DNA from: Thermoplasmata archaeon
Lineage (GTDB): Archaea; Thermoplasmatota; E2; UBA202; DSCA01
NCBI GenBank assembly: GCA_021159125.1
Contig: JAGGSL010000140.1
Coordinates: forward strand, 1 to 27,779
Length of the DNA: 27,779 nt
Direction: 5' to 3'
Shown: positions 3,527 through 22,468 of the stretch, in pieces
Position numbering within the stretch: the stretch's first letter is position 1
Layout: each line of letters starts with the position of its first letter
Notes under the pieces: model-generated
What the model was told of the DNA's origin: nothing
Seen by the model: the letters and a program-made list of their open reading frames with translations, nothing else
The model's database searches: none
Program-made: the position numbers and the translations under genes

Positions 3527-4183
3527 TCACAAGTTGCTTTTAATGATCTTAATCCCTCCCTTTGTCCCCACAACCACAACATCTGCAAGTTTTACAAATA
3601 AACCGTTTTCCACGACACCTGGAATGCTATTCAGCATTGTTTCCATTTCCTCTGCATTTTCAATGCTTGTGTATTTGCAGTCAAGAATGTAGTTTCCGTT
3701 GTCCGTGATGAATCCTTCCCTTAACTTTGGAGTGAAGCCAAATGCTCTCAGCTTTTTTGCCACACTTTCCCATCCAAATTTTACAACTTCCACAGGCAGC
3801 GGGAAAGAAAATGAGCTGACAATTTTTGACTCATCCACAACTATTATTTCCTTCATAGAACAGCTTGCCACCATCTTCTCTCTCAGCAAGGCGCCTCCCC
3901 CTCCCTTTATTAAATTTAATTTCCCGTCTACCTGGTCAGCTCCATCTATTGTAACATCTATGTCATGCTCATTTAACGGGACAAGAGGTATCCCGGCTTC
4001 ATTTGCGAGCTTTTCCGTTTCTCTGGATGTTGCTATTCCCTTGATATGCAAGCCGTCCTTCACCATTTCTCCTATCTTCTCAATTGCATATTTTGTTGTC
4101 GAGCCTGTGCCCAGCCCCACAATCATTCCGTCTTTCACATAAGAAGTTGCATGATGGGCAGCTGCTTTCTTCAATTCCTCCAT
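3527..4183 (-). CDS. rpiA: Ribose-5-phosphate isomerase A
   Basis: GLGTGST, DGADQVD, LIKGGGGALLREK, TDNGNYILD, IPGVVENGLF. Confidence 0.97.
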   Translation of the reverse strand: MEELKKAAAHHATSYVKDGMIVGLGTGSTTKYAIEKIGEMVKDGLHIKGIATSRETEKLANEAGIPLVPLNEHDIDVTIDGADQVDGKLNLIKGGGGALLREKMVASCSMKEIIVVDESKIVSSFSFPLPVEVVKFGWESVAKKLRAFGFTPKLREGFITDNGNYILDCKYTSIENAEEMETMLNSIPGVVENGLFVKLADVVVVGTKGGIKIIKSNL

Positions 4184-4197
4184 GAATGTAAACCAAG

Positions 4198-4211
4198 ATT
4201 TTTATAAAAAT
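4198..4211 (-). promoter_or_regulatory. TATA box for rpiA (palindromic ATTTTTATAAAAAT), probably a leaderless or short-leader transcript
   Basis: TTTATAAA about 20-25 nt upstream of the rpiA ATG, with no SD. Confidence 0.55.
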
Positions 4212-4218
4212 TTGAGCA

Positions 4219-6063
4219 TCAGCTTTCCATGAACTCCTCTATCTCAAGTTTCTTTAACGTCTTTTCCTTCGGAATTCCTTTTTTATCCCAGCCTCTTGCC
4301 TCGAAGTAGTCCTGCAACATCTTCTTTTCTTCTTTTTCGGATATAAAGCTTCCTTTTGACACTCCTTCAGGTATGGGAATCCTTATCTTTGGCGGGAGCT
4401 TCGAGTCCTCTTTCGTCCATCCGCATTTTATGTTGAATATGTGTTTCAAGTTGTTGATCCTCTCGCCTATGGTAAGCAATTCGTCTTCTCCCATTCTCTT
4501 CCCTATTGCTGCCTCAAGAATATCTGCAAAACCTTCTATCAGAAACATCCCTCTCGAAAACTTGCATACGCCAAGGGTATCGTATACAGCCATGAAATTT
4601 TCCATATCTGCTATTTCCTGCCCTTTCCCTTCGGCGCTGAATCTGTCCACTCCTTCATACCTCCAGAATTTTCCTGTAAGTTCGAGAGCATATGCGCCTG
4701 AACGGAGGTGGCATGCCCCTCGAGGGGACGTCATGAACGCAAGCCCCATTCCTTTTATTCCCCTTACATCATATGCAGGAGGTTCCATGCCGCGCACATG
4801 GACCGCATATTTGTCCGCCCCCTTGCCTATCTTCTCAGCAGCCCTCTTGACTCCTTCTGCCAGCAAATCTCCGAGCCCATCTCTATTGGCTATTTTCTCC
4901 ACCATCTGAACAACCGCATCGCCATTCCCGAAGCGGAGGTCTATGCCCGCAGCATCTTTTTCACTCAGAATCCCGTTCTCGTACAAATCCATGGCAAAAC
5001 CTATGGCTCCTCCTGCAGATATTGTGTCCATGCCGTACAAATCGCACAGCTCATTTGCCTTTGCAAGAGCCTCTATACTTGGATTTCCGCAGTTGCTGCC
5101 CAGAGCAAATAACGTTTCATACTCAACTCCATCAAGTGCCCCTTCGTATTTCCCCTTTATGACAAATGCCTTTCCGCATGGCTTTACGCATTGTATGCAC
5201 GCCTTGTTTTTTATTGTGTATCTTGGGGCCCAGTAGTATGGGTCAATCTCCTTTCTTTCGTCAAAAACTCCTTCCCTCCAGTTTCTTGTAGGGAAAGTGC
5301 CTCGCTCTGCGTTCATCCACTCTAAAAATTCTCCCGTGCCATACTTGCCATCGTCATTGAAAGCAGGGCTTTCTATCATTATCTTATACCACTTATCTAG
5401 CAGCTTCATCATCTTATCAGGGTCTGCAACTTTGATGTCATTGCTTCCTTTGATTGCTATCGCCTTCAAATTTTTTGAGCCCATGACAGCCCCCAGCCCG
5501 CCGCGCCCCGCCTGCCGCTCATCTGAATCTATGGTAGCATACCTGATTTTTCTTTCCCCTGCAGGCCCTATTGAAGCTATAACAACGTCGCCCTCATCTT
5601 TCTTTATCTCTTCCGTGGTTTCTCTTGTTGACTTTCCCCAGAGATGTTCCGCTGATTTTACAAGAACTTCGTCATCATTGATTAACAGATAAGACGGCTT
5701 GTCAGCCATTCCTGTAATTATAAGGGCATCATATCCTGCCTGTTTGAGTGCAAATCCTATTCTTCCGCCCATGATGCCTTCTCCCCATCCCCCTGTGAGG
5801 GGGGCTTTTGCAAAAAAGGCGGTTTTCCCGGCAGTGGGAACAACAGTCCCCGTAAGCAGCCCCGGAGCCATTACAAGCACATTTTCTTTTCCGAAAGGGT
5901 CTGCATCTCCCGGAACAAGTTTATTCAAAAAGTATGCCCCGAAACCATCCCCGCCGAGATATTTGAGGGCAAAGCTATCTCCTATTTTCTGCCTCTTTCC
6001 CTCCTTTTTTGATAAATCTACTGTCAGAATTTTACCGCCATAACAGCTATTTTCAACTACCAT
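4219..6063 (-). CDS. aor: Aldehyde:ferredoxin oxidoreductase (tungsto/molybdopterin AFOR family), catalytic subunit
   Basis: YLGGDG, KAPLTGG, IGPAGE, AGRGGLGAVMGSKNLKAIA, CIQCVKPCG, EYET, DLYGMDTIS, EPPAYDVRG, RGACH, D.LGVCKF; 614 aa. Confidence 0.93.
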   Translation of the reverse strand: MVVENSCYGGKILTVDLSKKEGKRQKIGDSFALKYLGGDGFGAYFLNKLVPGDADPFGKENVLVMAPGLLTGTVVPTAGKTAFFAKAPLTGGWGEGIMGGRIGFALKQAGYDALIITGMADKPSYLLINDDEVLVKSAEHLWGKSTRETTEEIKKDEGDVVIASIGPAGERKIRYATIDSDERQAGRGGLGAVMGSKNLKAIAIKGSNDIKVADPDKMMKLLDKWYKIMIESPAFNDDGKYGTGEFLEWMNAERGTFPTRNWREGVFDERKEIDPYYWAPRYTIKNKACIQCVKPCGKAFVIKGKYEGALDGVEYETLFALGSNCGNPSIEALAKANELCDLYGMDTISAGGAIGFAMDLYENGILSEKDAAGIDLRFGNGDAVVQMVEKIANRDGLGDLLAEGVKRAAEKIGKGADKYAVHVRGMEPPAYDVRGIKGMGLAFMTSPRGACHLRSGAYALELTGKFWRYEGVDRFSAEGKGQEIADMENFMAVYDTLGVCKFSRGMFLIEGFADILEAAIGKRMGEDELLTIGERINNLKHIFNIKCGWTKEDSKLPPKIRIPIPEGVSKGSFISEKEEKKMLQDYFEARGWDKKGIPKEKTLKKLEIEEFMES

Positions 6064-7179: not shown

Positions 7180-8151
7180 TTATATCTCTACACCAACTTT
7201 CTCGGCCATCTTGTTTGTTATGTACACAGGTGCTTCTTTCAGCAGTGGCTTGTAAATGTTATCAGGTATGAGCGGCGAGTTTGCAATTTCCTGCGCCTTC
7301 CTCACATATTTTATTATTCCCTGTCTGTATACTTCCTGAAGGTTTGTTCCCCTCTTCTTTAGTTCTTCCTCTATAGAAATCTTACCTTCTTTCAGCATGC
7401 CTATAAGCTCTTCGTTCAGGTTTTTTCCATATACATTGATAAGCGGCATTATGATGCCCTCTTCAAGTCGCCCTTCTGCAATATCTACCAGATCATCGGC
7501 AAGCTGATACGCCAGCCCTACGTTTCTTCCGTATTCTACCATCAGAGATTGGATTTCAGGGGGTGCCCTTGCTTCTATTGCACCTGCCCTGCATGCTGTG
7601 GCGAAAAGAGAGGCAGTTTTCATTTCCATTACATTGAAGTATTCTTTGACAAGCAGTTCAGAAGAATTTCCCCCATTGAATATATTCTCCAGATGTGCAT
7701 TCAGGTCTATATCTTCTATTTGACCTACAAGCGTCTTATCCCATGTATCCAGGAAAATTATCGCATTGTCCAGCCCATGAGTGACAGAGATGCGAAATGC
7801 CTTGCTTATCATCCTGTGGCCTGTGAGAATGGCGTTGCCTATCCCGCTTTTTATATATAGCGATGGTTTTCCTCTTCTTGTAACATCTCCGTCCATTATA
7901 TCATCATGAACAAGAGACGCGGAGTGGGCAAGCTCTATCCCAAGGGCACTTTCCAGGGCTTTATCATATCTGTCATCTCTTCCATTGCAAGCCCTGAATG
8001 CCAACATAAGCATGATGGGGCGAAGCAATTTTCCGCCTTCAAGAGCATACCTCATGTCTCTGTCCCTGATTTCTTCGTCAATTTTTTTTCTTACCTCGTC
8101 CTGGACGTGAGCGACAAATTCCTGAAATGTGAGCAGTTTCTCTATGGACAT
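7180..8151 (-). CDS. trans-Polyprenyl diphosphate synthase
   Basis: GGKLLRP, first Asp-rich motif HSASLVHDDIMDGD..RRGKPS, GQIEDI, KTASLF, second motif GLAYQLADDLVD. Probable start MSIEKLL at 8151 (ORF track 8169). Confidence 0.93.
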   Translation of the reverse strand: MSIEKLLTFQEFVAHVQDEVRKKIDEEIRDRDMRYALEGGKLLRPIMLMLAFRACNGRDDRYDKALESALGIELAHSASLVHDDIMDGDVTRRGKPSLYIKSGIGNAILTGHRMISKAFRISVTHGLDNAIIFLDTWDKTLVGQIEDIDLNAHLENIFNGGNSSELLVKEYFNVMEMKTASLFATACRAGAIEARAPPEIQSLMVEYGRNVGLAYQLADDLVDIAEGRLEEGIIMPLINVYGKNLNEELIGMLKEGKISIEEELKKRGTNLQEVYRQGIIKYVRKAQEIANSPLIPDNIYKPLLKEAPVYITNKMAEKVGVEI

Positions 8152-8233
8152 TATAAAGGCAATAAACATCTAATATAATAAACTAACGCTCACGAAAAAG
8201 ATTTAAATTCTCAAAAGTGTTGTCTTTTATATC

Positions 8234-11041
8234 ATGAAAACTCTGCTGGTTATTTCAATCATTATTCTTTTTCTTGCGCCTGCAAGCGGCTATGTCGGAA
8301 ACACAATTTTTGAAAAAGAAGAACATGGACAAAAGACAATTGCGGAATTCAATCATACTGTTGAAATAGCGCCTGGAGACGACTACTACATTCATTTTTC
8401 ACCTTCTGGAATAGAAGAAAAGCAAATATCATATGCTCACAATCTGTCGCAGAAGGCGCAGGCGGCGATTGCCCGTTCCCCTTTATGGTTGCAACGGGAG
8501 CTTGCCAAGCAATTTTATTTTTTGGATGAAAGATATGCAGATTTGTTACTCAACACTGAAAAAAAATATGTGGACGAAATTGCTTTTTCGATAGCCTATT
8601 CTCCTGTTGGCGCTGTTCCTCCTCCGGAAGTTTTGTATGACAATGCCCGCTTCCTTTATGAAAATGACAGATTTCTTGATTATGTGGATATAATAGATGA
8701 AGGAAATGGGAGCGATTATTATTCAACGCTAGAATATAAAGTGCTTGAGAACGGAACCGAAAAGAAAGTGATATGTCCCCCCTCCATATATTACTGGTTT
8801 GTTGTGTCTCCGAGAGTGACAATTGAAAATGCTACCTACGTATATGGCAAATTCTGGAGGGAGTATGTATTCAACCACAATGATATTGGCTACCCCCTAC
8901 TCAAAGAAAAGCTGTCGGGCATAAAATATATGTGGGACTGCAAATCGTATCGTCCCCCTGCCCATCGCACCTGGAATTACAGCATGTCAAATCATCCAAC
9001 AGCTGTGGAGGCAGTAAATTACTGGGTCGGAAAAACAATTCCTGCTCTCGCTACAGGTGACCGTCCTGGCCAGCCCAATGTTGTTGCCCATGAGCACAAC
9101 GGTTTTTGCGGGGAAATACACGAGCTTTCGACTGCCGCCCTCCGCGCTGCCCTCATTCCTGCCGTGCCGATCAATTGCCTGGGCGAAGACCATGTGTGGT
9201 GCGAGTTCTGGGAGCGCGGGTGGCACGAATTTGACGAGTGGTGGGCAGACGGCGGCGGGAGTATCGACAACTTTGACGAGTATCGATACGGATGGAATAA
9301 AATCATGTCCGCTCTTTTTGCATTGAAAGGAGATAGCTCCATATATGATGTCACAGAGCACTATATCCATGAGGAAGACAGGGGAGATGTAAAAGTGGCA
9401 GTCAAAGACATATTTGGAAACCCTGTGGATGGAGTGCGCGTTACTGTGTTTGGCTCCTGGAAGGCAAATGATTTCAAGGACAAAATGTGGGACAGGACCG
9501 TGGGCAGGCTGTGGTCCAAACTTCCCGAAGGTTTTAGAGAGAAATGGCAGGAAAATTATACAGAATTGAGAGAATGGTACCATGAGCGTGTACCTGGCAT
9601 CGTACCCTGGATTGTTCCGAGCATATGGAATTATACTGGCGTTGACGGCGAATGCACTTTCCATCTCGGCGCAGGGCATTCTTATCTATTCTCTCTCCAG
9701 AAGGATGAGATATTTTATTACGAGCCCTTCAGTTTGGGGGAAAGCAATGCCCTCCATTACATGGTGACAATTTTTCCCAACAAAAGCAGAAATGTCAGGA
9801 TAACTTTTGTTCTCCCTGACGGAATGCCCTCATTTAAAAAAGAGCATGTTGTTTCACCTCCTGAAGGAAATGATTATGAATGCAAAGTAAAATTCAGTAC
9901 ATCTGCTTATCAGATTCAAAGAAACATATGGGATTGGGAGGATGGAAAGGCAAAGACAGAATATGGAAGAGAAGATGTTTCATCAGCCATAAAATTTTTC
10001 ATTGTTGATGAAGAGAATTTTGGGAAATACATGGAGGGAAAGGCATTCGACTGCTACCATTATATTTACTCAGATACAGGCGAAATTTCATTCAATACAA
10101 GCAAGGCATTTTATCTTGTTTTCCAGAACACCGCAAAGAGAACCACAGTTATAACAAACATATCTGCATCTTTTGAAACAAGTACTGGAGAAAATTTCAT
10201 CAGCATAGACAAGCCGTGGAGCGATGTTTTTGAAAAGCCGACAATCAATGTGGGCGATGTTGTAGTTATTGAAGGCGCATCGACATCTGAAGGGAAGGTA
10301 AAAGTTGCAGACAAAACATTTGATGTGGATGGTAAATGGAAAATTTACTGGAACACCTCTTCATTATCGCCGGGGGACTACGAAATGGTTGCCAAATGCG
10401 GCAATTTTGAAAAGACATATGGCATAAAACTTGTCGATGCATCTCCTCCTGCTATTGATATCTCCCATCCGTATGATGGAGAAATATTTGATGGAAATGT
10501 GGTCGTGCAGGGAAGGGCATACGATAATGTCGGAATTGAAAGTGTCGATATGGAAGTTGCAGGAGAAAAAATATCTCTTCCGGAAAACTTTTCATATGAA
10601 TGGGCTCCTCCTGGCCCTGGAGATTATGACATTCTGATAAGAGCATCGGATGGCAACGGGCTTGAGACTGAAAAAGTTGTACATGTAGTAGTAAATGGTT
10701 CAGGCAATATGCCCTCAATAAATAAAGTCTGGTACACCCCTGAAAATCCAACTAATAGCAGCAATCTTGCCGTATATGCCAATGTGACGGGAGGTATGTT
10801 TTCAATAAAAAAAGTGGAAATAGAGATGAATGGCGAAGCAAAGGAGATGTATCTTTATGCATCAGACCCTGTTCAGCAAAGGCATGACGAAGATCCGCTA
10901 AAAAATGAAAGTAACCTGCCGGCGTACGGAATAGAACTCGGGCAGTTTCCCTCCGGCAGTACCATAAAATTTAGAGTGGAAGCTTATGACAGCGCCGGAA
11001 ATCCTGTAATGTCTGATGAATTTACCGTAAGAATATCATAA
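8234..11041 (+). CDS. Large secreted transglutaminase-like (Cys-His-Asp) protein with C-terminal Ig-like/beta-sandwich domains
   Basis: Signal peptide MKTLLVISIIILFLAPASG. GFCGE (Cys292), DHVW (His320), HEFD (Asp334). V.D..GNPVDGVRVTV...TGVDGECTF beta-sandwich and DASPPAIDISHP..G...V.VQGRAYDNVGIESV Ig-like segments. Confidence 0.8.
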   Translation: MKTLLVISIIILFLAPASGYVGNTIFEKEEHGQKTIAEFNHTVEIAPGDDYYIHFSPSGIEEKQISYAHNLSQKAQAAIARSPLWLQRELAKQFYFLDERYADLLLNTEKKYVDEIAFSIAYSPVGAVPPPEVLYDNARFLYENDRFLDYVDIIDEGNGSDYYSTLEYKVLENGTEKKVICPPSIYYWFVVSPRVTIENATYVYGKFWREYVFNHNDIGYPLLKEKLSGIKYMWDCKSYRPPAHRTWNYSMSNHPTAVEAVNYWVGKTIPALATGDRPGQPNVVAHEHNGFCGEIHELSTAALRAALIPAVPINCLGEDHVWCEFWERGWHEFDEWWADGGGSIDNFDEYRYGWNKIMSALFALKGDSSIYDVTEHYIHEEDRGDVKVAVKDIFGNPVDGVRVTVFGSWKANDFKDKMWDRTVGRLWSKLPEGFREKWQENYTELREWYHERVPGIVPWIVPSIWNYTGVDGECTFHLGAGHSYLFSLQKDEIFYYEPFSLGESNALHYMVTIFPNKSRNVRITFVLPDGMPSFKKEHVVSPPEGNDYECKVKFSTSAYQIQRNIWDWEDGKAKTEYGREDVSSAIKFFIVDEENFGKYMEGKAFDCYHYIYSDTGEISFNTSKAFYLVFQNTAKRTTVITNISASFETSTGENFISIDKPWSDVFEKPTINVGDVVVIEGASTSEGKVKVADKTFDVDGKWKIYWNTSSLSPGDYEMVAKCGNFEKTYGIKLVDASPPAIDISHPYDGEIFDGNVVVQGRAYDNVGIESVDMEVAGEKISLPENFSYEWAPPGPGDYDILIRASDGNGLETEKVVHVVVNGSGNMPSINKVWYTPENPTNSSNLAVYANVTGGMFSIKKVEIEMNGEAKEMYLYASDPVQQRHDEDPLKNESNLPAYGIELGQFPSGSTIKFRVEAYDSAGNPVMSDEFTVRIS

Positions 11042-16609: not shown

Positions 16610-17170
16610 GTGAAGATAAATAAAATTTCTGTGGTCCTATTTTCCGTCACAATTTTTTTCACTGCATCCATCTTTATTGCCCCTTTTCTGGTCGGAAAAG
16701 GCGAAGTAAAAAATCTTGACGGAAGCGCATGGAAAGTGGACTACAGGGAAAAATGGGACAGCATGCCGTTGTTTCCCCGCCTTATATATTACTTTGGGGA
16801 TATAAACTGCCACCAGAAGTATTATCGCTCTTATTACATCAACGAAAACCAGATGCCAGTATGCGCAAGAGATACGGGCATGTTTATAGGGCTGTCTTTC
16901 ATTTTCTTAATTTCAATTTTTGTTTCTGCAGGCAATACAATCAAAAACACTGTCATCAATTTCTTCTATCGTAAAATTAGGGATGCAAGAAAAATCTTAG
17001 TTCTTTTTTTTCTATTTCCAGTTCCTGCAGTTGCAGATGGGATTCTTCAGATGCTTACTCCCTATGAAAGCATAAATCCAATCAGGCTGGTAACCGGTCT
17101 TTTTATGGGCATGTCCATTGCTTTTTTTGTTTCCATATTATTTATAACAGACCCGCGCGCAGCATCATAA
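16610..17170 (+). CDS. DUF2085-like membrane protein
   Basis: NCHQ...RSY.IN.NQMPVCARDTG motif plus TM segments and PAVADG, RLVTGLFMG. Probable GTG start at 16610 (TTTATAAT at 16583-16590; ORF track 16589). Confidence 0.8.
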   Translation: MKINKISVVLFSVTIFFTASIFIAPFLVGKGEVKNLDGSAWKVDYREKWDSMPLFPRLIYYFGDINCHQKYYRSYYINENQMPVCARDTGMFIGLSFIFLISIFVSAGNTIKNTVINFFYRKIRDARKILVLFFLFPVPAVADGILQMLTPYESINPIRLVTGLFMGMSIAFFVSILFITDPRAAS

Positions 17171-17599
17171 TGTCTCTATTTCATCAAAAGCATCCCTTTT
17201 CAATATTTCAAGCAATTTTTTACCCGCTTCCTTAACTTTATCGCTTATGCCAGAATGAAACTGCCCCGGCTGTATCCCTATCAACATTACATCTGCATCG
17301 GTTGTTTTTTCAATGTGGGATATAAAAATTGAGAATGGTAACGAATGGGTGGAAAAACCTGCCAGACCTATTTTTTCTTTCGGGATAATTCTTGTTTCCC
17401 CTGCATCAAGCCCCATATCTGCTGCATCCACAATAACCACCTTCTTTGCCCCGCTTCTTTTTATCTCGGAGGTATAGTTTTCAGGGGCAGTAAAACAATC
17501 TATCGAGCGCCACCCATCGCGGGAAAAATTTCGGGCTATCCATACTCCTATGCCGTCGTCGCCGTTAATCTCATTTCCCACCCCGAGCAATATGTTCAT
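17165..17599 (-). CDS. hycI: Hydrogenase maturation endopeptidase (HycI/HyaD family)
   Basis: LLGVGNEINGDDGIG, APEN, VVIVDAADMG, STHSLP, IGIQP. Confidence 0.9.
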   Translation of the reverse strand: MNILLGVGNEINGDDGIGVWIARNFSRDGWRSIDCFTAPENYTSEIKRSGAKKVVIVDAADMGLDAGETRIIPKEKIGLAGFSTHSLPFSIFISHIEKTTDADVMLIGIQPGQFHSGISDKVKEAGKKLLEILKRDAFDEIETL

Positions 17600-17637
17600 G
17601 AGCATCATAACATAACTTCCTATAAAAATGCTATCGG

Positions 17638-17883
17638 CTACCCTCCTTCCAGCGGAGGAAATATTGCTACCTCATCGCCTTCCTTCATCCTCGAATTGCC
17701 GTCTGCATATCTGTGGTTGAGAGAAAGCACAGTATAATCTTTAAGTTCTTTCAGTTTAGGATATTTCTCCGAAAGCATCTCCAGCAAATCATTTAAACTG
17801 CTGTTTTCTTTGATTTCAACTTCGATTTCTTTTTCGCCCACTGCATCCCTGTGAGAAGAAAAGAACTTCACTTTAATCTTCAT
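17638..17883 (-). CDS. moaD: MoaD/ThiS-family ubiquitin-like sulfur carrier (SAMP-like), 81 aa
   Basis: MKIKVKFF..HRDAVG beta-grasp start and C-terminal GDEVAIFPPLEGG di-glycine. Start 17883 overlaps the ThiF stop (ATGA). Confidence 0.9.
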   Translation of the reverse strand: MKIKVKFFSSHRDAVGEKEIEVEIKENSSLNDLLEMLSEKYPKLKELKDYTVLSLNHRYADGNSRMKEGDEVAIFPPLEGG

Positions 17884-18629
17884 ATAACCCCGCAACTCGG
17901 ACATTTTTCGTTTCTTTCAAGCTCTATTATGTCATAAGAAAAAAATCTGCTGTCATATATTAGAAGCTTGTTTGTTAACAGCGATTCCATTCCAACAAAA
18001 AATTTTATCACCTCTGTCGCCTGTATTGTGCCTATAGTCCCTGCAACAGCGCCAAGTATCGGCGTTTTTTTGTGAGGCGGGGGGTTGGGAAAAATGCATT
18101 TCAGACATGCTGTTCTTTTAGGCATCACAGTCATAACCTGCCCTCCCATTTCCATGCACGCCCCATGAAATAGAGGAATGCCGATCTCTATTGCTGCATC
18201 ATTTATGACATATCTTGTTTCAAAATTATCCAGACAATCAACCACAGCATCCACATCCTTCAGCAGCCCAACCGCATTTTTCTCCGTGATTCTTTTGTTT
18301 ATCCCCGCAATCTCAATATTCGGATTGATTGCCCTGAGCTTTTTTTCTGCAGAATGAGCTTTGTCTCTGCCGATATCGCTTTCACTATAAAGTATCTGCC
18401 TGTTCAGATTTGAAAGTTCAACAACATCGTCATCTATAATTTTTATATACCCGATTCCGGCAGCAGCAAGATATATGGCGACTGCTGAACCCAGCCCCCC
18501 TGCGCCTGCAACCGCCGCCCTTGCATTTTTCAGTTTTTCCTGCCCTGCCTTTCCAAACTCCGGAATTGATATCTGACGGCTGTACCTGGCCATCTCTTCT
18601 TCCGTCAGCGTTATAGAATCAGATGCCAT
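17880..18629 (-). CDS. ThiF/MoeB-family E1-like adenylyltransferase
   Basis: RYSRQI, GQEKLK, GAGGLGS, DDDVVELSNLNRQ, VDCLDNFETR, Zn sites CLKC and CPSC. Probable start MASDS at 18629 (ORF track 18662). Confidence 0.92.
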   Translation of the reverse strand: MASDSITLTEEEMARYSRQISIPEFGKAGQEKLKNARAAVAGAGGLGSAVAIYLAAAGIGYIKIIDDDVVELSNLNRQILYSESDIGRDKAHSAEKKLRAINPNIEIAGINKRITEKNAVGLLKDVDAVVDCLDNFETRYVINDAAIEIGIPLFHGACMEMGGQVMTVMPKRTACLKCIFPNPPPHKKTPILGAVAGTIGTIQATEVIKFFVGMESLLTNKLLIYDSRFFSYDIIELERNEKCPSCGVI

Positions 18630-18648
18630 GGAATCACTATCTGTGGGA

Positions 18649-19779
18649 CTATTTCCATGCATCGTAAAACCTCCTTGCTAATTTTTTAATCCCCTTCCAG
18701 ACATCTTTTCCATGATATGCATCGGCCATGAGATGGGCGACTTCTCTCATTTCCTGCTCCTTCATTCCTATGTGGGTGGCTTCTGCAACCCCTATGCGCC
18801 CTGAAATGTCTATGAAAATTCCCTGCTCTTCCATTTTTCCGCAGAATTTTTTTGCCTCTGATGGTTCGAAATCAAGCAAAATCTGGTGTGACATGGTAAA
18901 GCCCTTTTCTGAAAATTTTACAGGTATGCCGAGCTCATGGAGCGATAACGCAAGCTCTCTTGCATTTTTTACTATTTGCCCTGCATATTCCCTCCCGTGA
19001 GAAAGCATTTCTTCCAGCACAATGCCTATTGCGGCAATCCTGTGGGCATGAGGGTTATCAACCAGGCCTATGCCTTCATCGAAGTCAAATTGCAGCATTT
19101 TTTTTAGCATTTCAGCTTTTTCTTCTGAATTTGTGAGAACAATGCCGCCCTGCGGACCGGGAAATGTTTTGTGAGTTGAGCCAATCATAACATCTGCCCC
19201 TTCTTTCAAAGGTTGCTGGAATCTGCCGCCTGCCACCAATCCGAGGACGTGGGATGCATCGTAGACCATAGTGCCGTATCTTTTTGCGTTCTCAAGCTCT
19301 TTCACAGGATGAGGAAATAGTATCACAGAAGAGCCGAGCATTGTAACCTCTGGCTTCTCCTTATTTATGACATCAATCGCTTCATCAACAATTATTTCTG
19401 TTTTCCTTACAGGAAGAGGAATCAGCTTTCTCTCAAATTTTTTGTAGCCCAACGGATAGCCGCCTTCTTCCTTTGGGACTGCAGCAATTTTTCCCTGGCA
19501 GGATGTAAAAGAGAAAAGGACTGCAAGGTCGCATATGTTTCCTGAAAGCGGTGTTACAAATGCGTACTTTGAATTAAAAACCTTTTTTGCCAAATTCTCC
19601 ACTTCCTCAAAAATCTGGGCAGCAAATTTACTGCCGCCGTACCATTTATCTCCGTATCTGCCGGCAAGGTCTGACGAGAGGGCATTGAGGGCAGACGAAA
19701 TCACTCTGTTTTCTGATGCAACAAGATTTATCCCTGAAGTCCTGTAAGCCTCATGCTCTTTTATCAGCTGCGAAATCAT
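18649..19779 (-). CDS. Serine hydroxymethyltransferase-like PLP enzyme (divergent, short)
   Basis: NLVASEN, YDASHVLGL, GSTHKTFPGPQGG (PLP lysine), SHQILLD, SGRIG. Several folate-related segments are altered or deleted (see findings). Confidence 0.85.
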   Translation of the reverse strand: MISQLIKEHEAYRTSGINLVASENRVISSALNALSSDLAGRYGDKWYGGSKFAAQIFEEVENLAKKVFNSKYAFVTPLSGNICDLAVLFSFTSCQGKIAAVPKEEGGYPLGYKKFERKLIPLPVRKTEIIVDEAIDVINKEKPEVTMLGSSVILFPHPVKELENAKRYGTMVYDASHVLGLVAGGRFQQPLKEGADVMIGSTHKTFPGPQGGIVLTNSEEKAEMLKKMLQFDFDEGIGLVDNPHAHRIAAIGIVLEEMLSHGREYAGQIVKNARELALSLHELGIPVKFSEKGFTMSHQILLDFEPSEAKKFCGKMEEQGIFIDISGRIGVAEATHIGMKEQEMREVAHLMADAYHGKDVWKGIKKLARRFYDAWK

Positions 19780-19808
19780 ACGCAATTAATGGAAGGAAGC
19801 TTAAAAAT

Positions 19809-20702
19809 TTACGCCTTTTTGTATTTTTTCCATATGATGGCGATTATCAGGGCTATGATGAGCAGCAGAAATATGGCTGATGCTATGGCGCCGCCTGATA
19901 TGCCGGGCTCCGAGCTTTTCACAAATACCGGAATTGCAACTGTTTTCTCTCCCCATCCGGGATTTGAAGACGGAGAGTATGTTACCTCAATCCATCCCTC
20001 TTCTGAGCCCTTTCCGGAAGCTCTGAATGTCAACGGTATTGACTTCGTGGGTGTTCCCGTGTATTTTGAGGAAATGACAAGTTCTGGCTGGGTAGCTGTG
20101 ACCTTCCAATCGCTTGAGAGATTCATTATGTTTATTTTTACATAAATATCTCCGTTGCACATGTTCGTGATGTTCAGATAAACTTTCTCGCTTTCTCCCT
20201 TGACGAGATTTATCGTGCTATCCGATAGCTGTGTTGAGATTCCCTTGTCAACGAAATCCTGCATAACGGTCACTTTTTTCTCTGTTTCAGAGCCCTGTAC
20301 CAGGAAGCTGCCGTTTGTATATGCATGGAGAGTGATGGACTCATAAGAAAATGCTTTTGTTTCAGCACTTGCCGTCAGCTTTATAGGAATGACCTTTCTC
20401 TCTTCTCCTCCTGTAAATCCTTTTGGCGTGACGCTGAAGGAGCTAACAGACGGAGAAACATATAGCCAGTTCGGCACATCTTTAACTTCAAGGTATACTG
20501 TCACAGGCAGGGGAAGGAAAGAGCCAAATCCCCACCTGAACGTGACATTTGCATTTATTGTCACAGAATCCGAGGGTGGAATTGGCTGTGGATCACTCAC
20601 GTCCAAATCAATTCCTGAAGACACAAAACATCCTTCTGCTGACGGTAAAAGAATTGCAAGTATAGCCACCATTATTATTGCTTTTCCAAATGCCATGCTC
20701 AT
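19809..20702 (-). CDS. Surface protein with signal peptide, beta-rich ectodomain and C-terminal TM anchor
   Basis: N-terminal hydrophobic segment, Ser/Thr/Val-rich beta-strand pattern, C-terminal GGAIASAIFLLLIIALIIAIIW followed by KKYKKA. Confidence 0.8.
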   Translation of the reverse strand: MSMAFGKAIIMVAILAILLPSAEGCFVSSGIDLDVSDPQPIPPSDSVTINANVTFRWGFGSFLPLPVTVYLEVKDVPNWLYVSPSVSSFSVTPKGFTGGEERKVIPIKLTASAETKAFSYESITLHAYTNGSFLVQGSETEKKVTVMQDFVDKGISTQLSDSTINLVKGESEKVYLNITNMCNGDIYVKINIMNLSSDWKVTATQPELVISSKYTGTPTKSIPLTFRASGKGSEEGWIEVTYSPSSNPGWGEKTVAIPVFVKSSEPGISGGAIASAIFLLLIIALIIAIIWKKYKKA

Positions 20703-20739: not shown

Positions 20740-21303
20740 CTATTCTATTGTTATGCTTTCTATTATGACATCATTGACAGGCCAGTCCTGCATTTGCCCA
20801 TACGGTGTATTTTTTGTGGTCGTTTCCACAGAGGCGATTGCTCTCACGACTTCCATGCCCTCTATGACTTTTCCGAATGCTGCATATTGCCCGTCCAGAT
20901 AGTGCTGCGCTCCATCGCATATGAAAAACTGGCTTGTGGCGCTGTTCGGGTCAGATGTTCTTGCCATTGATATGGCGCCGTCGACGTGTGTCACATCAGG
21001 ATTTGTCTCCAGAGGAATGGGACCGTAAGGACTCTCTTTATACGTTCCGTTAGGATAAAATCCGCCTCCCTGGATCATGAAATTTTTAATGACTCTATGA
21101 AAGACAAGGCCGTTATAAAATCCATCATTTGCAAGCTTGACGAAATTTTTGGTTGTAGTGGGCATTTTATCCTCATATAACTCTACTTTCATTGTGCCCA
21201 TGTTTGTTTTTATAACTGCTACGGGATTTTTTTCTTTGCCTGTGCATCCACTGAGCGAGGATGCAATTAAAAACCCCAGCAACAGCACAGCAATTTTTTT
21301 CAT
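20740..21303 (-). CDS. Cyclophilin-type peptidyl-prolyl cis-trans isomerase with lipoprotein signal peptide
   Basis: FYNGLVFHRVIKNFMIQGGG, GAISMART...SATSQFFI, LDGQYAAFGKVIEG. True start MKKIAVLLLGFLIASSLSGC (lipobox LSGC) at 21303. Confidence 0.93.
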   Translation of the reverse strand: MKKIAVLLLGFLIASSLSGCTGKEKNPVAVIKTNMGTMKVELYEDKMPTTTKNFVKLANDGFYNGLVFHRVIKNFMIQGGGFYPNGTYKESPYGPIPLETNPDVTHVDGAISMARTSDPNSATSQFFICDGAQHYLDGQYAAFGKVIEGMEVVRAIASVETTTKNTPYGQMQDWPVNDVIIESITIE

Positions 21304-21376
21304 ATTTCCGTATTTGGGATGAATAGATATATTTTTGGTTCGAGTCCTGGTTAGGATATTATGTTTCCTGCCTTTG

Positions 21377-22468
21377 CTATTCATCAGGCAAAATTTTTTT
21401 CATTCGCCTTACTGCTTTCAGCTTTTCCTCTTTCCCGATTTTTGCTTCTTCTATACCCTGCTTTATGATGGAAGTTGCTTCATCCATTGCTCTCCTGTTC
21501 ACAGGGTACGGTACCCCGTCTTTTCCGCCAACAGCAAAAGAGTATTTTATGGGGTCTTTCCATGAGGGGGGAGCGCCGTACATCAATTCCGATATATATG
21601 CAAGAGCCCTCACTGTCGCAGGCCCCACACCCCTGATTGAAAGCATCTCTTCATAGTCACGAGGCTGGAACTCATATATCCCTTTTATCACATTCCAGTT
21701 TATTCTCTGCGGCATGCGGAGATGGGGAATTTTCATGTTCCATCCATCAAGGGTTGTCTGGCACGATGGCTTTTTGAGAAGCTCCCATTCCCTTCTCAAA
21801 TGCCTCGGGTTATCTCTCACCAGGTCAACGGATACTTTTCTCGCCTCCCTGCTTTCCCTTGCGGTCATATCCATTGCCTTCTCCTTTTTTCCCAAAATTG
21901 CATTATGGGGCTCTTCAACAAAAACCTTCAGATCGTCAGATAGCCAGTGGTATCTTCTCGCATATTTATAATCGATGTTCATCCCCTGCTGTATAACAGC
22001 CCAATCGCCATCTTCTGACATTATGAGAACATGGTGGTAAAGCGCATAGCCGTCCTGAAGCGCAGCATTATCCACTTTTGCCGCCATCCTGCTCGCATAT
22101 TTCAACGAATCTATGGTTTCTTCCCCCAGGCCCATCTCGTAGCCGATTGTGTCTATCTCCTCAAGGGTTTTTTTCGAACTTTTGCCCTTCCCTCCTGCTA
22201 TCCTCACTTCACGCTTCCCTGACAGAGCTTCCTTAAGGGCACCGCATGTGACTGTTGTAGTGCCAGAGGAATGCCAGTCAAATCCGAGCACGCATGAAAA
22301 TGCCTGAAACCAGAAAGGGTCTGAAATTGTCTGCAAAAATTTTTTCTTTCCGTACTCGTAAATCATAACCTCGGATATTGCCTCCGCAAGCTTTACCATT
22401 CTCCCGAACAACCATCTGGGCGCTTTTCCTGGATGCAAAGGGAGCGATGCCATCCCTGTCCTTTCCAT
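21377..22468 (-). CDS. DUF763-like protein
   Basis: LPLHPGKAPRWLF.RM, WFQAFSCVLGFDWHSSGTTT, AAKVDNAALQDGY.LYHH, FAVGGKDGVPYPV. Includes an HhH-like segment IRGVGPATVRAL. Confidence 0.85.
   Translation of the reverse strand: MERTGMASLPLHPGKAPRWLFGRMVKLAEAISEVMIYEYGKKKFLQTISDPFWFQAFSCVLGFDWHSSGTTTVTCGALKEALSGKREVRIAGGKGKSSKKTLEEIDTIGYEMGLGEETIDSLKYASRMAAKVDNAALQDGYALYHHVLIMSEDGDWAVIQQGMNIDYKYARRYHWLSDDLKVFVEEPHNAILGKKEKAMDMTARESREARKVSVDLVRDNPRHLRREWELLKKPSCQTTLDGWNMKIPHLRMPQRINWNVIKGIYEFQPRDYEEMLSIRGVGPATVRALAYISELMYGAPPSWKDPIKYSFAVGGKDGVPYPVNRRAMDEATSIIKQGIEEAKIGKEEKLKAVRRMKKILPDE

Follow-up and report, generated by a model that had tools for sequence, protein, structure and literature searches.

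A serine hydroxymethyltransferase-like protein without folate-binding elements next to ThiF and MoaD genes in a Thermoplasmata archaeon

Genes at the locus

We describe a gene for a protein of the serine hydroxymethyltransferase (SHMT, GlyA) type in a 27,779-nucleotide stretch of DNA from a Thermoplasmata archaeon (contig JAGGSL010000140.1 of assembly GCA_021159125.1), which is referred to as the window throughout. The gene lies next to genes for a ThiF-type E1-like adenylyltransferase and a MoaD-type sulfur carrier (Table 1). Its product is an SHMT-fold protein in which the residues that hold pyridoxal 5'-phosphate (PLP) and the carboxylate of the amino acid are kept and the folate-binding elements are gone. 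It belongs to a Thermoplasmatota-wide paralog clade, here termed type A, which we compare with a second short form (type B) and with canonical SHMT. Two families recur in the comparisons: f1, the family of hydrothermal Thermoplasmatota to which the source organism belongs, and f2, its sister family.

Table 1. Genes of the array that contains the SHMT-like gene, in order of transcription (positions are those of the window)
Product	Position	Strand	Model matches
DUF763 protein	21377-22468	(-)	Pfam DUF763 439 bits
Cyclophilin-type peptidyl-prolyl isomerase (PPIase)	20740-21384	(-)	Pfam Pro_isomerase 167 bits
297-aa protein, putative membrane-anchored surface protein	19809-20702	(-)	no Pfam or NCBIfam match
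SHMT-like protein (type A), 376 aa	18649-19779	(-)	Pfam SHMT 100 bits; NCBIfam NF000586 224 bits
ThiF/MoeB/UbaA-type E1-like adenylyltransferase, 260 aa, two CxxC pairs	17880-18662	(-)	Pfam ThiF 262 bits
MoaD/SAMP1-like ubiquitin-fold sulfur carrier, GG C-terminus	17638-17883	(-)	TIGR01687 moaD_arch
HycI-type hydrogenase maturation protease	17165-17608	(-)	Pfam HycI 58 bits; TIGR00072 90 bits, above cut-off

Seven same-strand genes run from 22468 to 17165 with no spacer longer than 37 nt, in the order DUF763, PPIase, unknown surface protein, SHMT-like, ThiF, MoaD and HycI, the last of which begins 29 nt past MoaD. The original prediction had placed the SHMT-like gene at the head of an operon and about 20 nt upstream of ThiF, and neither description fits the layout. 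The gene sits inside the array, and its TAG stop (18651-18649) falls 14 nt within the ThiF open reading frame (ORF), which begins at ATG 18662 and has a GGAGG located 8 nt ahead of that ATG. An alternative ThiF ATG at 18629 is the sole start that gives a spacer, of 19 nt, after the SHMT-like gene. Further along, the ThiF stop and the likely MoaD start (ATG 17883) share the ATGA at 17883-17880 in a 4-nt overlap. The longest MoaD ORF begins at 17904, relatives of MoaD are 81 aa long, and the match to TIGR01687 (67 bits against a cut-off of 49.5) begins at residue 10. The top NCBIfam matches of the ThiF protein are MoeB and the SAMP-activating E1, every one of them under its cut-off.

The SHMT-like gene starts at ATG 19779, with an alternative TTG two codons upstream at 19785. 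Because a TATA-like TTTTTAA lies about 25 nt before this ATG and no Shine-Dalgarno sequence is present ahead of it, the gene may be transcribed from a promoter of its own and be translated without a leader. The layout also suggests that the SHMT-like, ThiF and MoaD genes are probably co-transcribed and translationally coupled in the source organism. Public sequencing datasets that contain DNA of this organism number 20, from 16 vent or sediment metagenome studies, and none of them is an RNA dataset.

Residues kept and lost in the SHMT-like protein

The translation of the SHMT-like gene holds VASEN, YDASHV, GSTHKTFPGPQGG, ISGRIG, RYGDKWYGG, EEGGYPLG and IFIDISGRIG, and every PLP motif listed in the original prediction (ASEN, DASH, a GSTHKTFPGPQGG-type lysine motif and SGRIG) is found in it. 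In an alignment to E. coli GlyA (the annotated K-12 record), S35, Y55, Y65, S175 and D200 are retained as S22, Y42, Y47, S151 and D174 of the window protein, and H203, H228, K229 and R363 as H177, H203, K204 and R328, with the PLP lysine K204 lying in an S-T-H-K that is equivalent to the S/T-H-K of canonical SHMT. The Pfam score of the window protein (PF00464) exceeds the cut-off of 27 bits, and its score against the NCBIfam SHMT model is under the cut-off of 335 bits, whereas the canonical copy in the same genome reaches 468 bits. An AlphaFold2 model built from the family alignment (pLDDT 94) superposes on M. jannaschii SHMT (4uqv) with a template-modelling (TM) score of 0.9, and canonical SHMT structures as a group (E. 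coli 1dfo; M. jannaschii 4bhd and 4uqv) have a like fold, with TM scores of 0.86-0.90.

The window protein departs from canonical SHMT in three elements and is about 50 residues shorter. Five residues of the YAEGxPG segment are deleted, E. coli Glu57 included; the PLP-stacking H126 is replaced by Tyr108; and the N-x-N...P...SG loop that contains N347 and precedes the carboxylate-binding arginine is deleted over about 15 residues, with N345 changed to Asp. The shortening of the YAEG loop to RYGDKWYGG had been read earlier as a Glu to Asp change as well. The shortening stands, and the substitution is not general, since the position aligned to the YAEG Glu is T, S, D, N, G or E across the family. 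The other two proposed changes hold up: GGH has become GGY, and the reduction of the C-terminal N-K-N...P loop to IFIDISGRIG is the 15-residue deletion just described.

These losses are common to all 61 aligned family members, Tyr108 being present in each (in a wider set the position is Tyr in 40 and Phe in 2), and this uniformity excludes chance or sequencing error as their source. Invariant in the same alignment are R41, Y42, Y47, G48, G49, G106, G107, Y108 and P109, together with D174, H177, K204, D324 and R328. The residues for PLP and for the substrate carboxylate are likewise all invariant. All 12 aligned canonical archaeal copies have the Asn loop, and every type A and type B sequence has lost it.

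The original prediction had called for a check for a second, canonical glyA, and one is present: a 429-aa ORF on contig 63 of the source genome that carries R-Y-A-E-G, with G-A-H instead of G-G-H and the complete N-M-N...P...P-S-G loop. A better-scoring canonical SHMT was likewise found by Pfam model search in 10 of 10 other type-A genomes tested. The loss of the pterin site is not simply an adaptation to an archaeal cofactor, because both this canonical copy and the SHMT of M. jannaschii, which uses tetrahydromethanopterin (H4MPT), retain RYAEG, G(G/A)H and the N-x-N loop. The same observations bear on the idea that the window protein still transfers one-carbon (C1) units as an SHMT, with a different or modified pterin carrier bound by a remodelled site. 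The retention of the SHMT fold and of all PLP and amino-acid-binding residues would fit this idea. We nevertheless judge it improbable: SHMTs of the tetrahydrofolate (THF) and H4MPT types both keep the Glu and the Asn loop, which here are deleted rather than substituted; a canonical SHMT always accompanies type A in the genomes tested; and Ta0811 of Thermoplasma acidophilum, from the sister clade, is reported in a paper that cites the original work to be defective with THF (PMC9876860).

The type A family and its likely reaction

At least 120 clusters with at least 50% (50-99%) identity to the window protein occur in a large protein collection, mostly of 365-395 aa and mostly from Thermoplasmatota bins, with some on bacterial contigs. 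Where a source name is given to family members it is usually 'serine/glycine hydroxymethyltransferase' or 'hypothetical protein'. In a scan of 401 Thermoplasmatota genomes the scores of SHMT-like matches are bimodal. Matches of at least 337 bits (45-78% identity) are found in all 11 other f1 genomes, in most of f2 and in a few other families, and a second group at about 205-245 bits, widespread in the scan, corresponds to canonical-type SHMT. A literature search for a described archaeal folate-independent SHMT paralog gave nothing more specific than Ta0811.

Several members lie in other settings. Type A genes with 54-56% identity are located on contigs with clearly bacterial neighbours (L014/L015 5001-6110; L051 6001-7098), which include an outer-membrane efflux protein, PhoD, a Por_Secre_tail protein and DUF2400; these neighbours indicate that the family has crossed between archaea and bacteria. 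Two genomes of a family other than f1 and f2 (G077 and G146) have a type A gene near a bacterial-type SHMT that scores 352-356 Pfam bits in two pieces of a very long frame. On L073 (G077:C68) type A occupies 4009-5202, about 2.5 kb from the divergent bacterial-type gene at about 7630-8890, and the arrangement on G146:C18 is similar. We also note a third, long SHMT form of 582-590 aa on L075 (G004:C14) and L076 (G016:C120), which is extended by about 140 aa at its N terminus, carries an insert after R-Y-A-E, keeps G-G-H and an Asn-type loop, and falls on a very long branch.

Type B is a short form of about 377-446 aa that occurs in Thermoplasmatales and two other families. It has G-G-Y, the C-terminal loop deletion, the change of N345 to Asp and a D-N-x-H-x-x-R motif, with variable inserts in place of Y-A-E-G. 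Type A and type B are never found together in one sampled genome. A careful maximum-likelihood (ML) tree groups A and B against canonical SHMT with support of 100/100, with type A itself at 100/99 and type B at 96/88, and a quick ML tree recovers the split of A and B from canonical SHMT at an SH-aLRT value of 99. On these trees the sister group of type A is the Thermoplasmatales type B. This placement, with Thermoplasmatales short SHMTs that include the putative Ta0811, supports the suggestion made in the original prediction of a folate-independent aldolase, to the extent that Ta0811 is described in the paper citing it.

The Thermoplasma genome G203 (a single 1,564,906-bp contig) carries a type B gene at 864.7 kb and a canonical copy as its last gene, which, from the fit of gene positions to locus numbers, we take to be Ta0811 and Ta1509. 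Ta0811 is reported to cleave threonine only and to be expressed far above Ta1509, and T. acidophilum is reportedly without a threonine aldolase gene. One type B sequence is identical to an NCBI-named T. volcanium protein. The window protein and the G203 type B protein align over their full length with 35% identity (E 5e-70) and the same loop deletions, and they fall in one clade against canonical SHMT (100/100). Both are without the YAEG Glu, have Tyr for the stacking His and Asp for N345, share the D-N-x-H-x-x-R motif, and have lost the Asn loop at the same boundary (...D-x-x-G-R-I-G). Both also coexist with a canonical SHMT and score below the NCBIfam cut-off of 335 bits (224 for the window protein and 258 for the type B protein). 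They differ at several points: the five-residue deletion of type A, with its invariant W-Y-G-G, corresponds in position to variable inserts of type B; G-G-Y-P-(L/F)-G in type A stands against G-G-Y-D-G-Y in type B; and type A has an extra D-x-G-I-G-L segment and also occurs on bacterial contigs. In G203 the end of the gene at the Ta0811 position overlaps by 11 nt with the start of a gene for a protein with four CBS domains (L089 2648-3736).

Ta0811 comes from the work of Ma'ruf et al. (2021, Extremophiles 25:393, doi 10.1007/s00792-021-01238-9), as cited in PMC9876860. According to that citing paper, Ta0811 is defective in the THF-dependent reaction as a result of one missing folate-binding loop, and THF-independent threonine aldolase activity is attributed to the 2021 study. 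A folate-independent aldolase is already represented by a characterised relative, as the citing paper describes it. A threonine-type retro-aldol function is the most likely one for type A because it shares a clade with Ta0811, reported there as THF-defective.

We therefore lean, with some reserve, towards a pterin-independent aldolase that acts on threonine or a similar substrate. The window gene would be the local type A form of an old Thermoplasmatota paralog whose type B branch includes Ta0811. Its product would be an SHMT-fold PLP enzyme no longer able to bind a pterin cofactor, whether tetrahydrofolate or H4MPT, and would act as a cofactor-independent retro-aldolase alongside the canonical SHMT of the genome. 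The most likely substrate would be L-threonine, L-allo-threonine or a similar beta-hydroxy-alpha-amino acid, cleaved to glycine and an aldehyde. LtaE (PF01212) offers a precedent for this chemistry, as it catalyses the proposed conversion of Thr to Gly and acetaldehyde in a PLP-dependent and folate-independent manner; it belongs to a different fold-type I subfamily, and at E<=0.01 PF01212 does not match the window protein. No LtaE-type threonine aldolase was found in the 93%-complete source genome, where the best PF01212 (Beta_elim_lyase) match is NifS.

Several points weigh against a threonine aldolase assignment. Identity to the Ta0811-type protein, at about 35%, is no higher than that to canonical SHMT (37-39%), so that function is being transferred to type A across a deep split. 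The naming of the G203 genes as Ta0811 and Ta1509 is putative and rests on gene position, and the details of Ta0811 activity are second-hand, drawn in part from the citing paper (PMC9876860). In addition, W46 and P109 are invariant specifically in type A, which also has an inserted D-x-G-I-G-L-V-D-N-P-H segment; these type A-specific features could mean a different substrate.

Such features lend something to the alternative of a cofactor-independent SHMT-fold enzyme whose main reaction is other than threonine cleavage, and the threonine transaldolase ObiH (7k34) illustrates what this could look like. ObiH is SHMT-derived and folate-independent, and like the window protein it is without YAEG and has lost part of the C-terminal loop. 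It is the second-best solved structure by sequence (116 bits), above the bacterial SHMTs, and Foldseek gives a TM score of 0.90 between it and the AlphaFold2 model. However, ObiH keeps the stacking His in G-G-H where the window protein has G-G-Y, and the window protein scores 165 bits against the fluorothreonine transaldolase model TIGR04506, whose cut-off is 650. The known L-threonine transaldolases are found in bacterial secondary-metabolite (antibiotic) gene clusters, whereas type A is single-copy and lies in varied housekeeping contexts in small archaeal genomes. No sampled genome has both A and B, which suggests that the two have the same role. The trees cover types A and B and canonical SHMT. 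On balance we regard a main reaction other than threonine cleavage as unlikely, though worth keeping in view, and threonine-type cleavage by a pterin-independent aldolase as the better account.

Distribution of the ThiF-MoaD linkage

The neighbourhoods of the SHMT-like genes were surveyed by tblastn of the window proteins against 43 loci and by clustering of flanking ORFs. ThiF, with MoaD where the contig reaches that far, follows the SHMT-like gene at 11 of 12 f1 loci, at none of the 11 from f2 and at none of the 8 from other families. The single f1 exception (G090) has an unrelated 200-aa ORF after the SHMT-like gene. The adjacency is also absent on ten further contigs with clear family members (L004, L005, L012-L015, L048-L051), which represent five distinct gene arrangements, bacterial ones included. 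The pair exists apart from the SHMT-like gene in f2: in G001 orthologous ThiF (61%) and MoaD (52%) genes are intact elsewhere in the genome, with overlapping stop and start, behind a divergent regulator gene. G100 and G034 gave only matches of 39-41% identity, and G024, which is 97% complete and has the SHMT-like gene, gave no ThiF match at E<=1e-20. The f1 loci have the flanking DUF763, PPIase and HycI genes in common as well, and for this reason they count as one inherited arrangement and not as independent cases.

Other neighbours of the gene vary. No functional neighbour conserved across the family was found in the five arrangements on the ten contigs or in eight more distant genomes, where the adjacent genes include IF-2B-like and GNAT genes, Iso_dh, DUF2400 and a convergent class-V aminotransferase. 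In one f2 genus (L012/L013 6110-7264 (-)) type A converges on an Aminotran_5 gene (310 bits), and type A may be loosely associated with other PLP enzymes. The only neighbour of the SHMT-like gene conserved order-wide is the 297-aa protein, which is directly upstream at all 22 f1 and f2 loci with 33-85% identity. It has two hydrophobic segments, one at the N terminus with A-E-G-C after it and one at the C terminus with basic residues after it, a pattern that suggests a surface protein anchored in the membrane. The order of the DUF763 and PPIase genes is the same in the relatives L003 and L010.

The ThiF-MoaD pair has ordinary candidate roles of its own in the source genome, since a second ThiF-family E1 (C112, L053 1477-2274), a SAMP2-like small modifier (C125, L055 1498-1800) and an NcsA/TtuA-like tRNA thiolation enzyme (C89, L092) are present and MoaE was not detected. 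The search for MoaE gave no match in this 93%-complete genome, which leaves its absence unproven. With MoaE not found, a molybdopterin synthase role for the window MoaD is not favoured, and the gene content suggests thiolation or protein modification, and not the synthesis of molybdopterin, as the task of the pair. The ThiF/UbaA-like E1 and the MoaD/SAMP-like carrier would form an independent two-gene module that came to lie beside the SHMT-like gene in one family and is probably used in tRNA thiolation or protein modification.

The original prediction had raised the possibility that the SHMT-like enzyme works jointly with ThiF and MoaD in a pathway for a sulfur carrier or a cofactor. Under such a scheme the MoaD thiocarboxylate might, for example, attack a PLP-bound intermediate in a CysO/CysM-like manner, or the enzyme might supply the precursor of a thio-cofactor. 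The architecture of the window speaks for it, with the 14-nt overlap and GGAGG before ThiF and the ATGA overlap of ThiF and MoaD, as do the retention of the gene order in 11 of 12 f1 loci and the failure to find MoaE, which makes it probable that MoaD is not a molybdopterin synthase subunit. The distribution speaks against it: the linkage is missing from the sister family (0/11), from other families (0/8) and from all ten further contigs; one f1 genus has an unrelated gene at the ThiF position; G001 holds the pair elsewhere and G024 has the SHMT-like gene with no ThiF match at 1e-20; and the f1 loci, with their flanking genes in common, are a single inherited arrangement. The NcsA/TtuA-like enzyme is an ordinary client for the pair. 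Linkage that recurs across lineages marks CysO-CysM and HcyS-MetY, in which the PLP enzyme belongs to the sulfhydrylase type. The likeness to these systems is that a PLP enzyme gene adjoins genes for a ThiS/MoaD-fold carrier and an E1, but in the present case the linkage does not extend beyond one family, and the fold of the enzyme is that of SHMT. The role is therefore not supported: the linkage is absent in relatives outside a single family, an outcome that the original prediction had itself named as counting against it, and in G001 the pair lies apart from the SHMT-like gene. We consider the role very improbable. Most probably the adjacency of ThiF-MoaD to the SHMT-like gene is gene order without shared chemistry.

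The tight coupling to ThiF and MoaD that is conserved within f1, down to 62% identity, counts against so plain a reading and leaves room for a lineage-specific functional link. In f1 alone the enzyme could have joined the E1 of the ThiF type and the carrier of the MoaD type in a true functional unit by recruitment, a reading to which we give a very slim chance. The enzyme might then use the MoaD thiocarboxylate to make a C-S bond on an amino-acid intermediate bound to PLP, or it might be a dedicated target or partner of a ubiquitin-like modifier. If true, this recruitment would be a new sulfur-carrier-dependent reaction on the SHMT scaffold. Taken as gene order without shared chemistry, the locus offers a caution: genes packed tightly in a small archaeal genome, even where their translation is coupled, do not have to serve one pathway.

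If type A were annotated as a folate-dependent GlyA, the reconstructed one-carbon and glycine metabolism of uncultured archaea would be distorted. The sister relation to the Ta0811-type proteins gives type A a concrete, testable annotation in its place. The family also points to a set of aldolases, probably thermostable and cofactor-free, with which beta-hydroxy amino acids could be made.

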